Virus record (IMG/VR): IMGVR_UViG_3300030333_008604
Location: 1 to 64,000 of that record
Direction: 5' to 3' (one strand)
From: a virus
Length of the DNA: 64,000 bases
How positions within the stretch are numbered: the first letter of the stretch is position 1; every line of letters starts with the position of its first letter. Of this stretch, positions 3-25,612 are shown piece by piece. The position numbers were made by a program, and so were the translations under genes. Under the pieces are notes generated by a model. It was given only the letters and a program-made list of their open reading frames with translations, was not told where the DNA came from and ran no database searches.

Positions 3-1121
3 GAGGCAAAAAAGCTTGGCTTATTGCCACACGAGTTACAAGCAATCGTGTGGGTCTCAATGCAAGTTAGACAAACCGGCGACCCGGGTCTCGGCGTTAC
101 AACCGAGTTTGCCATCAACCAGATTAAAGATTCTATAAGAAACATCAAGCAGATCAATCAAGACCTTGCTGACATCGAAAGAGAATTTGAGGAAAAAAGC
201 TGGCTTGGTACCTTGTTTGACGAAATTGATGGAAAAGGTTTTGAAGAGGCAGGCAAGTTTCTTCTTGGTGTCAAAAACGAAAAAGGAAAAGTCACGGTTC
301 CTGGTGTAAGATCGCTTACGTCTCGCGGAAAGAAGGGCTCAGCTTACAAATATTACCCAACACCTGAGGCGCCGGTTGCCAAACCCAAGGCTGTGCGCGC
401 AAAGAAGCCCGCAGGTGAACCAAGACCAAAACCTCCAAAAGCATATGCAGATTCAAAGTTTTCAGAACTTAATACCTGGTATGTCATGAACGAGATAATT
501 CAAATGCCTACTGGTAAGTTTAACAATCTGTATGATTCTATTATGCTGTATCTTAATCCAGATTTTTCAACACAAGCTGCAGTTGACTATATCACTGGCC
601 GGTTTGATCCAGAAGCTACAGCTACTAGCAAATATTTTACAGAAAACAAAAAAAGATTATCAGAAAATGATATCGGCGGCAATGAAATCAATGCTAAGCG
701 CGGCAATGACATGGCTACAATAATGCATAATTTTAAAAACTATACTTCAACTGGCGATGACGGTACAAAATCAGTCAAAGCAGTTCTTCATAGAAATGGC
801 GTTGCCCTTCTTTTAAAAAACGAAAAAGGCTGGGATTTGCCAGGAGGTCATATAAAAACTGACGAAGGGGCGCTGGAAGGCCTACAAAGAGAAATATATG
901 AAGAAACAGGCCTGATGATAGATCAAGTGGTTGATTTACATATAACGCACAAAAATAAAGAATTTTATGAGGGTGAGTTTCCAAGAGACGACATCATCTT
1001 AAGCGACGAGCATAGTGAGTATGGGTTCTTTAACTTAGAACAAGTAAAAAATCTACCTGATATTAGTCCACACTATCGAAAAATAGTAATTGCTTGCTTG
1101 ACAGGTGTATACGATGGATAA
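3..1121 (+). CDS. 5'-truncated multidomain protein with C-terminal NUDIX hydrolase domain
   Basis: Frame is open from window position 3; Nudix box GGHIKTDEGALEGLQREIYEETGL followed by LSDEHSEYGFF. Confidence 0.8.
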   Translation, partial: EAKKLGLLPHELQAIVWVSMQVRQTGDPGLGVTTEFAINQIKDSIRNIKQINQDLADIEREFEEKSWLGTLFDEIDGKGFEEAGKFLLGVKNEKGKVTVPGVRSLTSRGKKGSAYKYYPTPEAPVAKPKAVRAKKPAGEPRPKPPKAYADSKFSELNTWYVMNEIIQMPTGKFNNLYDSIMLYLNPDFSTQAAVDYITGRFDPEATATSKYFTENKKRLSENDIGGNEINAKRGNDMATIMHNFKNYTSTGDDGTKSVKAVLHRNGVALLLKNEKGWDLPGGHIKTDEGALEGLQREIYEETGLMIDQVVDLHITHKNKEFYEGEFPRDDIILSDEHSEYGFFNLEQVKNLPDISPHYRKIVIACLTGVYDG

Positions 1122-2541
1122 TGTAAAATGGAAGAGTTTTCTCAAAGAAGAGAGAAGTAGCGATCAATGGAGCGAATATGTAACATGGGTCGAGGGCATT
1201 ATTAGCAAAACTAGAAAAAAACTTCTTAATTCTTATGTCAACGGCCCGGGCAAACAAAGGCTCTTGAACTGGATGAAGGGTCAGACTAACATCAGCAACG
1301 TTGATAAAATTTATAAAAGAAGAGTGTTGCCACAAATAAAGAAAGCTTTAAAAATAAAAGTCAACATAACCAAGCAAAGACTTGAAATAAGCCACGGACA
1401 CCCGACGGAGGCCTATTACAACAGGAAGGGAGGCAAAAAAGGCGCTTACATTTCACTGTCTGTTGTATATTTTAGTGATGCTTATGCCGCGTTCGCGGAC
1501 TTTGGGAGCGCACCGGATATTCAAGCTCGAATGAAAAAAGCGCTTGGACAGACGATAGCCTTAGACCTAAGGCATGAGTTTTTTCATTCTGTCGACGACC
1601 ACTTAGTTGATGTCTTCCCAAATATAAAAAACTTATTTTCAACAAATATAAAAACTCGTCAGTCTTTGCGCACCATCATGGGGGGCGAGAATCCGGCTGG
1701 CCATGCTGAATCTTATGCTGATTACAAAAAACTACAAAGCATGATAGACGACATGGGCAAACAAATAACGCCGGCTTATATTAAATTTTTATGCAAGAAT
1801 AAAGGTAACCAGGCAGCAGGGAGAACCCAGGCAGAAAAGCTCCTGCTCGACACTGAATATGTTAAAGCAATCGACTGTACAAATCCTGCGGGGGTTGCCA
1901 AAGCGTTACGTGATCTTGCACAAGTTGATAAAAAACCAACAATGACGGCCATGGCTGAAGGGCGTGATTGGAGAAAGTTTCTTAAAGAATCAAAGTTGAG
2001 AATTTTTGATTTTGATGACACTTTAGTTAAGACAGACGCAATGGTTAGGATGACCTCTGATACCGGCAAGCAAGTTGAGATGACACCTGCCGAATTTTCT
2101 CAACATCAAATGAACGATAAAAACGATTATGATTTTAGTGACTTCAATAAAGTGATCAACCCTAGGGAAATCAGACAGGTTACTGATATTTTAAGAAATG
2201 TAACAAAGGCTGCGGGTGATCGCGAAATAATTATTTTAACAGCCAGGGACCCCAAGGCTCAAGCTGCAATTGAAGAATGGCTAGAGTCAATCGGTATCGA
2301 TATATCAAAAATTAATGTAATTGGGCTAGCTAGTCCCGATCCAGCAGCTAAGGCAAACTGGATTGAAAATAAAATTGTTGACGGTGCGACAGACATCCTG
2401 TTTCTGGATGATTCTGGTAAAAACATCGACGCGGTAGCAGCACTCAAAAGGCGCTACCCAGATATTAAAATCGACGCGAGAATTAGCAAGTATGGGGAAA
2501 CAATAGAGGAGATTATAAAAAATGGGATGGAGACAAAATAA
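1114..2541 (+). CDS. Two-domain protein: HExxH zincin-like domain plus HAD-family phosphatase, each preceded by a WxxFLKE leader
   Basis: HEFFH at 1573-1587; HAD motifs IFDFDDTL, ILTAR, FLDDS; WKSFLKEE (1129-1152) and WRKFLKE (1969-1989); ATG 1114 preferred to GTG 1105. Confidence 0.75.
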   Translation: MDNVKWKSFLKEERSSDQWSEYVTWVEGIISKTRKKLLNSYVNGPGKQRLLNWMKGQTNISNVDKIYKRRVLPQIKKALKIKVNITKQRLEISHGHPTEAYYNRKGGKKGAYISLSVVYFSDAYAAFADFGSAPDIQARMKKALGQTIALDLRHEFFHSVDDHLVDVFPNIKNLFSTNIKTRQSLRTIMGGENPAGHAESYADYKKLQSMIDDMGKQITPAYIKFLCKNKGNQAAGRTQAEKLLLDTEYVKAIDCTNPAGVAKALRDLAQVDKKPTMTAMAEGRDWRKFLKESKLRIFDFDDTLVKTDAMVRMTSDTGKQVEMTPAEFSQHQMNDKNDYDFSDFNKVINPREIRQVTDILRNVTKAAGDREIIILTARDPKAQAAIEEWLESIGIDISKINVIGLASPDPAAKANWIENKIVDGATDILFLDDSGKNIDAVAALKRRYPDIKIDARISKYGETIEEIIKNGMETK

Positions 2542-24097: not shown

Positions 24098-25127
24098 ATT
24101 TGATTTTGTAGATCACTACGGTGACGTAGAAGAGGCTGGACCATCTAACGAACTGCCCGCCAATGAAGTTGAATGCGCGCTAAACTGTGCATTTGTAGGC
24201 GTTGGAGGTGGAGGCGGAAAACTCGCAAAAGCTTTTCTTGATCTAGGCTTTAAAAAGACGCTTCTTATTAATACCACACCAAAAGATCAGCCCGATGGCG
24301 TTGATTCTGAACACTTGGTTTTGATTCCAGATGCTGATGGCGTTGCAAAAAACGTTCAGTTTGGCAAAGACGTTTTCAACAGAAACGGATCTGTTGTCGA
24401 GGATGCTTTACGAACCAAGCTAGGTAAAGTCGATTGGCTTTTCGTTCTTGCCGGAGGCGGTGGTGGAACAGGTTCTGCATGTCATGCGCTCGACGATGTC
24501 TTTAAGCGATACCTTAATTCAGTTAACGCAGAAGGTAAGGTATTTTATATCGCAACCTGGCCGACGTCACAAGAGCTTTTGAATAATACGATAACTAAAA
24601 ATGCTTTATCTTTAGCCAACGATGTTAAAGAGTCTCCACATATTATACTAGACAATGAAAAGCAAGTCAAGTTTTTGCGTGGAAAAGTTGGAATGATGAA
24701 TTTGTTCCCGACTGCAAATACAGCTTTTGCAAAGCTCTTGACACAGACTCTTAAGCTGGCGACTGAGAAATCATCCATTCAGTCTTTTGACTCAAAAGAT
24801 CTTGAAAGATGTCTTAAGGCAGACAAGAGAATGGTTATTGGCACCACCGTCATTAAAGACCCCAATGTGTCGAATCTTGGCTCTGTTATACTGCAAAATT
24901 GCTTAAAAAGGTCCCCTTGTCCTGATGTCAGGGAGAAGTCCAAGATTGGTGCCTTGTTGTTGGTTGTGACACCAGAAATGGCAAACAATCCTGAAGTTAG
25001 CCAGCACATGGACGCTGCAATTTCTTATGTTGGCGGCCGTTCAGAGACCTTATTCTCTGGGGTCTATGTAAGGGATAATCTCCCGGGACTTATTGCAATT
25101 ACCCTAATGGGAGGATTAGAACAATGA
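24090..25127 (+). CDS. Tubulin/FtsZ-family GTPase (PhuZ/TubZ-like)
   Basis: VGVGGGGGKLA, INTTPKD, signature AGGGGGTGS (GGGGGTGS 24453-24476), ILDN, SFDSKDL. Confidence 0.9.
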   Translation: MSEFDFVDHYGDVEEAGPSNELPANEVECALNCAFVGVGGGGGKLAKAFLDLGFKKTLLINTTPKDQPDGVDSEHLVLIPDADGVAKNVQFGKDVFNRNGSVVEDALRTKLGKVDWLFVLAGGGGGTGSACHALDDVFKRYLNSVNAEGKVFYIATWPTSQELLNNTITKNALSLANDVKESPHIILDNEKQVKFLRGKVGMMNLFPTANTAFAKLLTQTLKLATEKSSIQSFDSKDLERCLKADKRMVIGTTVIKDPNVSNLGSVILQNCLKRSPCPDVREKSKIGALLLVVTPEMANNPEVSQHMDAAISYVGGRSETLFSGVYVRDNLPGLIAITLMGGLEQ

Positions 25128-25612
25128 AAACCAAGCTACTATTTGAGGGCTGGAGAAAGTTCGTTAATGAGGATGACGACAAGGAAGGAGATCTACCACC
25201 GCCCACCTATCAAGAATGCTTCGATGGATGCATAAACAGTGCTTTAAAGTTAGGCTTGGATCTAGATCAAGCTGAGAAAGACTGTGCGGCTGAATGTGCT
25301 GAATATAAAAAGAAAAACGTCAACGAAGCCTACGATGAAGAAGAGTATGCTACTGCTGGCGGAATGGAACAAGACATTGAGATGCGTCGCTATCGCGGCG
25401 ACTTTGAGCAAGGTGATTATGGTAACGTAGGTCCTGGAGGAGGTGAGATGGTGGACCACGGCGAATATCCCTGGATTAAAGATGCCTTAGAAGATCTTCA
25501 AGACGAAGAGTTTGATGATAAAGTTAAAGCACTAGAGGCTTTAGCAGATGAACTAGGTATTGAAATTACGACTGAGGAAGCTGAAGAGGAAGAAGATCTT
25601 AATGAGCAATGA
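25124..25612 (+). CDS. Acidic protein with FEGW leader and 4-Cys mini-domain
   Basis: MKTKLLFEGWRKFVNE; CFDGC...DCAAEC; GGAGG SD. Confidence 0.7.
   Translation: MKTKLLFEGWRKFVNEDDDKEGDLPPPTYQECFDGCINSALKLGLDLDQAEKDCAAECAEYKKKNVNEAYDEEEYATAGGMEQDIEMRRYRGDFEQGDYGNVGPGGGEMVDHGEYPWIKDALEDLQDEEFDDKVKALEALADELGIEITTEEAEEEEDLNEQ

Follow-up and report, generated by a model that had tools for sequence, protein, structure and literature searches.

Two portable leader peptides as candidate head-targeting tags in an uncultured distant relative of phage T4

We analysed a 64,000-nucleotide stretch of viral DNA (IMG/VR record IMGVR_UViG_3300030333_008604, positions 1 to 64,000; hereafter the window), which makes up the first 64 kb of one viral contig of 122,942 bases, and describe two short leader peptides, K and W, that head otherwise unrelated proteins encoded in it. 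The W leader has the consensus MKLLFENWRKYLxE (about 14 residues) and the K leader the consensus MKITKxQLKQIIKEELxxVLxE (about 22 residues). Their position in metagenomic open reading frames (ORFs), the number of protein clusters that carry them and their codon usage bear out the view, put forward in a preliminary description of this DNA, that the leaders are portable N-terminal motifs that matter at the protein level. On balance, we consider it probable that the two motifs make up a capsid-targeting and propeptide system in the style of T4 that uses two new tags. By this model, in which core binding, cleavage, packaging and injection of the leader proteins are all modelled on the T4 precedent, the leader would bind the scaffolding core of the assembling prohead, bringing its cargo inside; the gp21-type S77 protease of the same genome would cut after the terminal hydrophobic-x-Glu; and the freed proteins would remain with the DNA and enter the host alongside it. 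In fused forms, an internal leader could act as a cutting joint.

According to the available parts of two reports (PMC9026906, PMC3012670), the T4 protease gp21 cuts after L/I-X-E, and the first 10 residues of the internal protein IPIII, the capsid-targeting sequence (CTS), are enough for packaging; CTS residues 4 and 7 serve targeting, residues 8 and 10 serve processing, and the T4 internal proteins are diverse anti-defence proteins that have only the CTS in common. In the T4 record, IPII and IPIII both start with MKTYQEFIAE, followed by Ala. The literature that we searched, with most subscription journals outside it, yielded no published description of the K and W leaders.

All ten motif copies listed in the preliminary description are present at their positions, those of the W class at 1129, 1969, 19753, 20863, 22133 and 25124 (Table 1), and all ten end in [LVI]-x-E. 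As chance controls we translated the entire 122,942-base sequence in six frames, alongside shuffled versions of it. A strict K pattern matched five times in the genome, always on the + strand and at an ORF start, and in none of 200 shuffles; K leaders outside the window are found at 96743 (TTG start) and 100974 (GTG start), about 75 kb off the block that holds the window's copies. The pattern FE[NG]W matched four times (shuffle mean 0.31, maximum 2) and the core W[RK].[FY][LIVM].E three times (shuffle mean 0.135, maximum 2). When hidden Markov models (HMMs) of the two leaders, trained on IMG/VR metagenomic leaders only, were run over the genome, five K and four W copies stood clear of noise: the K matches score 21–45 bits (next best 5.8), and the W matches, at 19753, 25133, 22133 and 1969, score 24.6 down to 7.6 bits (noise ≤5.3). 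The W copy at 20863 reaches just 2.6 bits, and the one at 1129 is outside the top 30. The latter also fits the core pattern, and we take it to be a genuine variant, since the syntenic gene in the related genome G024 starts with MNNKKWKQFLTE and a NUDIX gene of G024 with MKGYVKAWKEFLEE; the copy at 1969 is backed by homology to a standalone gene that consists of a leader plus a HAD domain. Third-position nucleotides differ among the window's leader copies. A further set of LxE starts that had been grouped with the leaders (VVLTE, VLLTE, MKLTE, VLLNE and DLAE) shows no excess over chance: [LI]xE occurs within the first 25 residues of 10/22 ORFs of the region and 19/78 ORFs elsewhere, as compared to 20.5% of internal 25-residue windows, and the regional excess arises because the leader genes themselves contribute to it.

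The seven ORFs of the window that start with a leader continue into parts with differing Pfam domains or none. The 233-aa K protein starts at an ATG one base past the stop of the upstream gene; the 103-aa K protein has a basic mature part; and the 185-aa K protein carries a net charge of +19 and a C-terminal DUF6321 (Pfam E 4.5e-20). Of the W proteins, the 774-aa one has a Thioredoxin domain at residues 39–142 (Pfam E 3e-24), the 654-aa one an Amidase_2-like core (Pfam E 6.6e-5, below the family cut-off; 32% identity with the window's other amidase across 66 aa), and the 162-aa one is very acidic (net charge -35). The 475-aa ORF 1114-2541 joins an N-terminal half with the motif HEFFH to a HAD-type phosphatase. 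The degenerate K-like stretch that closes the 654-aa ORF, recovered with a loose pattern, could represent a C-terminal propeptide or else a relic.

Both leaders are widespread in metagenomes. Scanning IMG/VR for K with a degenerate DNA pattern matched at least 148 stretches; among the matches listed, no more than 30 open codons precede 164 of the 182 unique ORFs, complete ORFs have a median length of 99 aa, and the ORFs often form arrays of 2–4. The W pattern, written without a start codon, returned 118 stretches with 106 unique ORFs (median complete length 211 aa): Met stands exactly three residues upstream in 95 of them and Val-Lys-Leu, presumably reflecting a GTG start, in seven more, with ≤30 open codons upstream in 97. 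The proteins behind the leaders are diverse: clustering gave 152 clusters for the 174 K proteins among the matches listed and 70 for 102 W proteins, and 99/100 K (again among the matches listed) and 59/79 W cargoes have no Pfam domain. Most K cargoes are small and orphan, and they are often acidic; the larger W cargoes include enzymes, with kinase-like, NUDIX, HD, RNase_T, NT5C/HAD, 2H-phosphoesterase-like, PGDYG and DUF7178 domains and one TMEM65. In a search of 1.84 billion proteins, the K profile matched 13,612 representative proteins at E ≤0.001. 

Strict DNA patterns for both matched none of five cultured phages (immuto, RM378, Mel-JY01, S-ShM2 and HTVC008M), tblastn with the 103-aa K and 162-aa W proteins found no match in 50,697 cultured phage records, and a two-leader metagenomic protein gave chance matches alone (E ≥2), the motifs being so short as to lie near the tblastn detection limit and the patterns so strict that variant leaders in cultured phages could escape them. 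Among 185,579 species genomes, the leader patterns matched 25 stretches, all on contigs of metagenome-assembled genomes, and since the taxonomy of these contigs is inconsistent they give no clue to the host. In 13 of 283 leader genes, ten of class K and three of class W (loci L034, L041, L055, L075, L127, L138, L145, L181, L192 and L221), the ATG is immediately preceded by a conserved 24-nt element, ..ACTAAGTATGAATGGATTAGCAAC. This element, absent from the window, possibly serves as a common promoter or start cassette.

The leaders end in a motif of the L/I-x-E type, which is the type cut by gp21 as far as the available part of PMC9026906 describes it. In W leaders the sequence continues into [LIVMF]-x-E in 80 of 106 cases; of the 102 ORFs longer than 35 aa, 86 have the Glu in place, and at the positions beyond it the commonest residue reaches at most 26/102. 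Among the K matches listed, [LIVM]-x-E ends at residues 20–23 in 101/174, as compared to 9–24/174 in control windows, and a stretch rich in Gly, Asp, Glu, Ser and Pro follows directly downstream. Synonymous codons vary freely at fixed residues – all six Leu codons are used at K position 8, all four Thr codons at K position 4 and all six Arg codons at W position 9 – which argues that the peptide, rather than the DNA, is under selection.

Leaders are both arrayed and chained. In the window, the K genes at 17665, 18499 and 18827 are followed by W genes from 19753 to 25612; G024 has eight consecutive W genes, and another relative, G001, has 13 K-like genes and six W-like ones, most of them in clusters, such that leader-cargo arrays differ between related phages. 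Internal in-frame copies, as proposed in the preliminary description, are found in the window at 1966-1989 and 20863-20913 and in at least 146 metagenomic protein clusters. Eight of the first nine metagenomic homologues of a K protein (P0002–P0009) carry 2–4 K leaders each, and among the best 150 representative proteins 146 have 2–4 K leaders, with a median spacing of 133 aa, and 141 have one at the N-terminus. The internal K copies of these 150 proteins are Met-less at position 1 in 57/169 cases, keep the hydrophobic-x-Glu in 121/169 and score a mean of 29.2 bits, as compared to 30.7 for N-terminal copies, although this set overstates copy conservation because it was chosen for strong multiple copies. 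Chained leader cassettes are real and common.

Internal W-type copies can be told apart at three places in the window. Residues 285–471 of ORF 1114-2541 are 31% identical (E 2.8e-20) to residues 7–218 of the standalone leader-plus-HAD protein at locus L207, with the homology beginning inside DWRKFLKE, directly ahead of the HAD half. The copy at 20863 (residue 371, MQEIFENW...) precedes a C-terminal part with the motif HELTH and looks decayed; for this downstream half of ORF 19753-22077 no homologue of 222–707 aa was found. The other case is the 5'-truncated ORF 3-1121, which is 48–57% identical to the C-terminal parts of W-leader ORFs at five loci (L218, L174, L176, L158 and L166) and whose NUDIX part is 39% identical to the standalone NUDIX gene of G024 mentioned above: the leader position before the NUDIX part reads MATIMHNFKNYTSTGD, where the Glu motif is gone as judged by eye, and which looks like a decayed leader.

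The preliminary description suggested looking for a gp21-like protease elsewhere in the genome, and a Peptidase_S77 protein is indeed encoded downstream of the window, as are a portal of the gp20 type and a gp23 capsid protein (Table 1). T4 gp21 and this protease are 34% identical across 147 aa, the His, Ser and Asp stretches align (ELDHP, SSRG and FDIV in the contig; ELNHP, SSRG and VDAV in T4), and the protein matches the gp21 structure PDB 5jbl (E 4.8e-18); we take these aligned stretches to be the ones that hold the catalytic residues of gp21. S77 is present in 9/9 leader-bearing records that are ≥90% complete according to CheckV (2/2 with K and 7/7 with W) and in 24/49 of the records tested altogether, with the misses being fragments of 19–68% CheckV completeness. 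By capsid protein, the closest cultured phages are Flavobacterium phage immuto (45% identity), Microcystis phage Mel-JY01 and Rhodothermus phage RM378; the T4 capsid protein aligns at 30% identity, and five near-complete uncultured leader-bearing genomes of 184–204 kb have capsid proteins that are 60–69% identical over their full length. Given these capsid identities and the size of the relatives, the contig probably covers roughly two thirds of the genome of a phage whose clade is marine, uncultured and distantly related to T4. At the maturation-cut region the capsid protein reads, by eye, LLKE/A, as compared to FLTE/A in T4 and IVSE/A in immuto. As compared to T4 gp23, the protein also has an insertion of about 150–200 residues, shared partly with immuto, Mel-JY01 and RM378. 

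Directly after the protease lies a conserved 124-aa gene (genome 108759-109133; L004:5759-6133) with the K-like start MNKKELKTILKPLIKQCIKECILEEG, the G001 counterpart of which scores 10.1 bits with the K profile; it may be a head-core protein and the source of the K leader. The capsid N-terminus (LLDKWERTGLLEG here, ELLNKWKPLLEG in T4) resembles a W leader by eye, and we keep this as no more than a lead, as the W-HMM gives no score there.

Several observations, the missing W-HMM score at the capsid N-terminus among them, weigh against the capsid-targeting reading. Since all leader-bearing genomes seen belong to one T4-like clade, the co-occurrence with S77, though required by the hypothesis, does not discriminate, and among the fragment records S77 is found in just 15/40. 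Of the window's three internal W-type copies, two seem to be partly decayed (2.6 bits at 20863; Glu lost in MATIMHNFKNYTSTGD), which bears on cutting at joints, and the hydrophobic-x-Glu is missing at the expected place in 73/174 K leaders (42%, among the matches listed) and 26/106 W leaders (25%). Some of the W cargo (thioredoxin, NUDIX, NT5C, HD) looks like ordinary enzymes of nucleotide or RNA metabolism and TMEM65 is a membrane-protein domain, both odd for a phage head. The T4 late-promoter word TATAAATA is not enriched, with four occurrences on the + strand against about seven expected; co-expression with the head genes can therefore not be argued. No virion proteome of this uncultured phage was found. 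Sequence comparison of the leaders with MKTYQEFIAE was negative. What the leaders share with it is a register, counted by eye from the Glu. Positions P7, P4 and P3 hold Tyr, Phe and Ile in T4, Leu, Val and Leu in the K leader and, in 4/6 window copies of the W leader, Trp, Tyr/Phe and Leu/Ile/Val, which for W is partly fixed by the search pattern. Co-folding of the scaffold candidate (5-row alignment) with the first 40 residues of K-leader proteins (78-row alignment) gave a score of 0.00 in both runs, which had no controls, and favours neither side.

Part of this could be accounted for if the leaders were docking peptides of a non-capsid assembly, their amphipathic helix gathering proteins, with neither cleavage nor packaging, at a hub such as a complex of nucleotide-metabolism or RNA-repair enzymes or a phage compartment. 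The W cargo, from thioredoxin, NUDIX, NT5C/HAD and HD to RNase_T, 2H-phosphoesterase-like and kinase-like proteins, recalls such metabolism more than it does classical head proteins, the W leader has a pronounced amphipathic character (hydrophobic moment 0.55 versus 0.44 for the T4 CTS), and the Glu motif is missing in 25–42% of leaders. We still hold docking to be unlikely: conservation stops at the Glu two residues past the hydrophobic one, which a gp21 site needs and a docking helix does not, the K cargo is made up of small orphan proteins rather than enzymes, we know of no hub protein, and the capsid reading has a direct T4 precedent within the same head-module family. Alternatively, the leader may act in cis, as an oligomerisation helix, an aid to solubility or folding, or a translation-initiation sequence, having spread as new genes were born by recombination behind an existing start. 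Leaders do start with Met-Lys, mostly with AAA codons, a start common in well-translated genes; the 24-nt element upstream of both K and W starts (13/283 genes) suggests that start regions move as units; and the hydrophobic pattern of K (L8, I11, I12, L16, V19 and L20) could, as judged by eye, form a coiled coil. However, the 14–22 conserved residues with free synonymous variation go far past the needs of initiation, and the internal copies are Met-less in 57/169 cases and score almost as N-terminal ones do, albeit in a set picked for high scores, making a role in cis quite improbable. 

The repeats could also be recombination or regulatory cassettes at the DNA level, with the peptide a by-product. 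T4-type phages have promoter-stem-loop cassettes that offer a parallel, the gene arrays vary between relatives, and Met precedes 112/169 internal copies, as if whole gene starts had been joined. This idea is largely refuted by the use of all synonymous codons at Leu8, Thr4 and Arg9 and by the differing third positions of the window copies, and we regard it as highly improbable. A bolder form of the capsid-targeting reading, tentative and on the whole doubtful, is that K and W are two address codes of one loading system, K for many small, rapidly evolving and mostly acidic proteins and W for enzymes, with exchangeable cassettes chainable in frame because the prohead protease would cut at every leader. 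Under this proposal the K cargo might, speculatively, include DNA mimics or anti-defence factors, and thousands of orphan genes of ocean T4-like phages (13,612 representative clusters for K alone) could become readable as an injected arsenal.

Table 1. Leaders, leader-bearing ORFs and other features of the window and of the head module downstream of it (genome coordinates where marked).
Feature	Position	Strand	Details
K leader MKVTKSELEQIIEEEMNNVLDE	17665..17730	+	starts 233-aa ORF 17665-18366; K-HMM 21.4 bits
K leader MKVTKLQLRQIIKEELKGVLDE	18499..18564	+	starts 103-aa ORF 18499-18810; K-HMM 28.5 bits
K leader MKITKSQLKQIIQEELASVLNE	18827..18892	+	starts 185-aa ORF 18827-19384; K-HMM 44.7 bits
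Degenerate K-like stretch QITKIIEEEITRVLLE	24035..24082	+	C-terminus of ORF 22133-24097; loose pattern, K-HMM just 3.2 bits
Variant W leader MDNVKWKSFLKE	1114..1149	+	starts 475-aa ORF 1114-2541; core pattern match, W-HMM none
Internal W-type leader DWRKFLKE	1966..1989	+	joint ahead of HAD half, ORF 1114-2541; W-HMM 7.6 bits
W leader MQKLFENWRKYSLDE	19753..19797	+	starts 774-aa ORF 19753-22077; W-HMM 24.6 bits
Internal in-frame W copy MQEIFENWRAAQGALDE	20863..20913	+	residue 371 of ORF 19753-22077; W-HMM just 2.6 bits
W leader MKDLFENWDEWLAE	22133..22174	+	starts 654-aa ORF 22133-24097; W-HMM 10.8 bits
W leader MKTKLLFEGWRKFVNE	25124..25171	+	starts 162-aa ORF 25124-25612; W-HMM 19.3 bits
5'-truncated ORF	3..1121	+	relatives are W-leader proteins >508 aa
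HExxH protein	1114-1977		HEFFH motif
HExxH protein	5263-6624		HELVH motif
HExxH protein	20863-22074		HELTH motif
Probable lysis cassette	2522-4127	+	Amidase_2 + PG_binding_1 endolysin candidate, two small ORFs with hydrophobic segments
792-aa protein	6871-9249	+	EKTDGQN stretch, GGFKPPTVGH stretch
Giant ORF (1834 aa)	10549-16053		no PHROG match
Transfer-messenger RNA (tmRNA) gene	19388-19739	+	ARAGORN prediction; tag peptide ANDNVSFDYALAA; between K array and first W gene
Tubulin/FtsZ-like GTPase	24090-25127	+	Pfam Tubulin E 2e-4 (below cut-off); PDB 3zid E 3.2e-5
Glycosyltransferase/sugar-nucleotide island	32553-46961	+	UDP-glucose dehydrogenase, heptose-pathway genes, epimerases
Giant ORF (1304 aa)	48919-52833		no PHROG match
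Giant ORF (3451 aa)	54184 to genome 64539		no PHROG match
Large terminase	genome 102682-104256		outside window
gp20 portal, Portal_T4	genome 104260-106212		outside window; Pfam E 5e-81
gp21-type prohead protease, Peptidase_S77	genome 108125-108757		outside window; Pfam E 2.5e-32
Scaffold candidate	genome 114944-116167		outside window
Gp23 major capsid protein	genome 116191-117996		outside window; Pfam E 2.4e-73

While the leaders themselves hold up, the idea that the roughly 25-kb block between 1114 and 25612 forms one cargo cassette does not: just 7/19 of its ORFs start with a leader, lysis-like genes, the tmRNA gene, the tubulin/FtsZ-like gene and large proteins lie inside it, and two K-leader genes are found some 75 kb away. 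In the probable lysis cassette, which includes small membrane-type ORFs at 3617-3865 and 3870-4127, no gene has a leader, and the second, weaker amidase-like protein of the window has a W leader; this contrast fits the head-loading model. The tubulin/FtsZ-like protein, which has FtsZ and TubZ chains as its next PDB matches, has a 26%-identical homologue in G001. The three HExxH motifs suggest, on motif grounds, metallopeptidase-like domains; comparison of the parts at 1114-1977 and 20863-22074 detected no relatedness between them, and the HELVH domain recurs as a standalone 170-aa gene in G024.

In the 792-aa protein, we take the EKTDGQN stretch to resemble the ligase-type KxDG motif and GGFKPPTVGH the nucleotidyltransferase HxGH motif. 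Its N-terminal half shares 28% identity with a ‘cytidylyltransferase like’ gene of Microcystis phage Mel-JY01, which together with two uncultured records makes up its only matches, and its residues 658–691 share 85% identity with the C-terminal end of a K-leader protein (the ‘NPWAICTAS’ module). The protein starts MATPVLLTE/G here, MRRLLLE/G in G024 and directly M/GGVAGH in G001, a single case of variation that fits a short removable presequence. The 1834-aa ORF has a sole Pfam row at 16.8 bits (cut-off 27), no match in cultured phages and a best ESM Atlas neighbour at 0.77, below lead level. Nearly all genes of the contig lie on the + strand. Its final 2.2 kb (genome 120733-122942) contain no long ORF, and the window's first ORF lacks its 5' part, so the ends of the contig do not mark a clean boundary of the genome.

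If the capsid-targeting reading is true, a tag of 14 or 22 residues would reveal from sequence which proteins are packed and injected by an abundant group of uncultured ocean phages. Most leader-tagged proteins are currently orphan genes, and because injected proteins would act before any phage gene is expressed, they would be prime candidates for anti-defence and host takeover. The CTS principle, so far a matter of one tag in coliphages, would come to cover several unrelated tags, cargo that includes enzymes, and genes chained in the manner of polyproteins, and phage-capsid engineering would gain new loading tags.

Among known systems, the cargo-loading peptides of encapsulins are likewise short portable tags that bring diverse enzymes into a shell of the HK97 fold; they differ in being usually C-terminal and kept uncut, and the shell is not viral. 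Closer to the phage described here are the giant phages phiKZ, 201phi2-1 and SPN3US, many head-internal proteins of which, enzymes among them, are cut after Glu by a gp21-related protease; the proteases gp175 and gp245 are distant gp21 homologues, some substrates are cut at several sites, the motif is S/A-x-E, and a shared portable leader is not described in the available part of the source (PMC9026906). The protease of our contig, in contrast, is a close S77 member rather than a distant homologue. The nearest parallel is the T4 CTS, which heads IPI, IPII and IPIII, is taken off by gp21 and has a counterpart in the Alt propeptides; it is likewise a short N-terminal peptide ending in hydrophobic-x-Glu and common to unrelated proteins, encoded alongside a gp20/gp21/gp23 head module and heading small, variable cargo genes that stand in arrays. 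The leaders described here, which are known from sequence alone, differ in that there are two classes in one phage genome, the K repertoire is far larger, many cargoes are acidic rather than basic, and in-frame multi-leader chains are frequent. Since they also differ from the CTS in sequence and are longer (14 and 22 residues versus 10), the K and W leaders would work like the CTS and yet belong to a separate peptide family.

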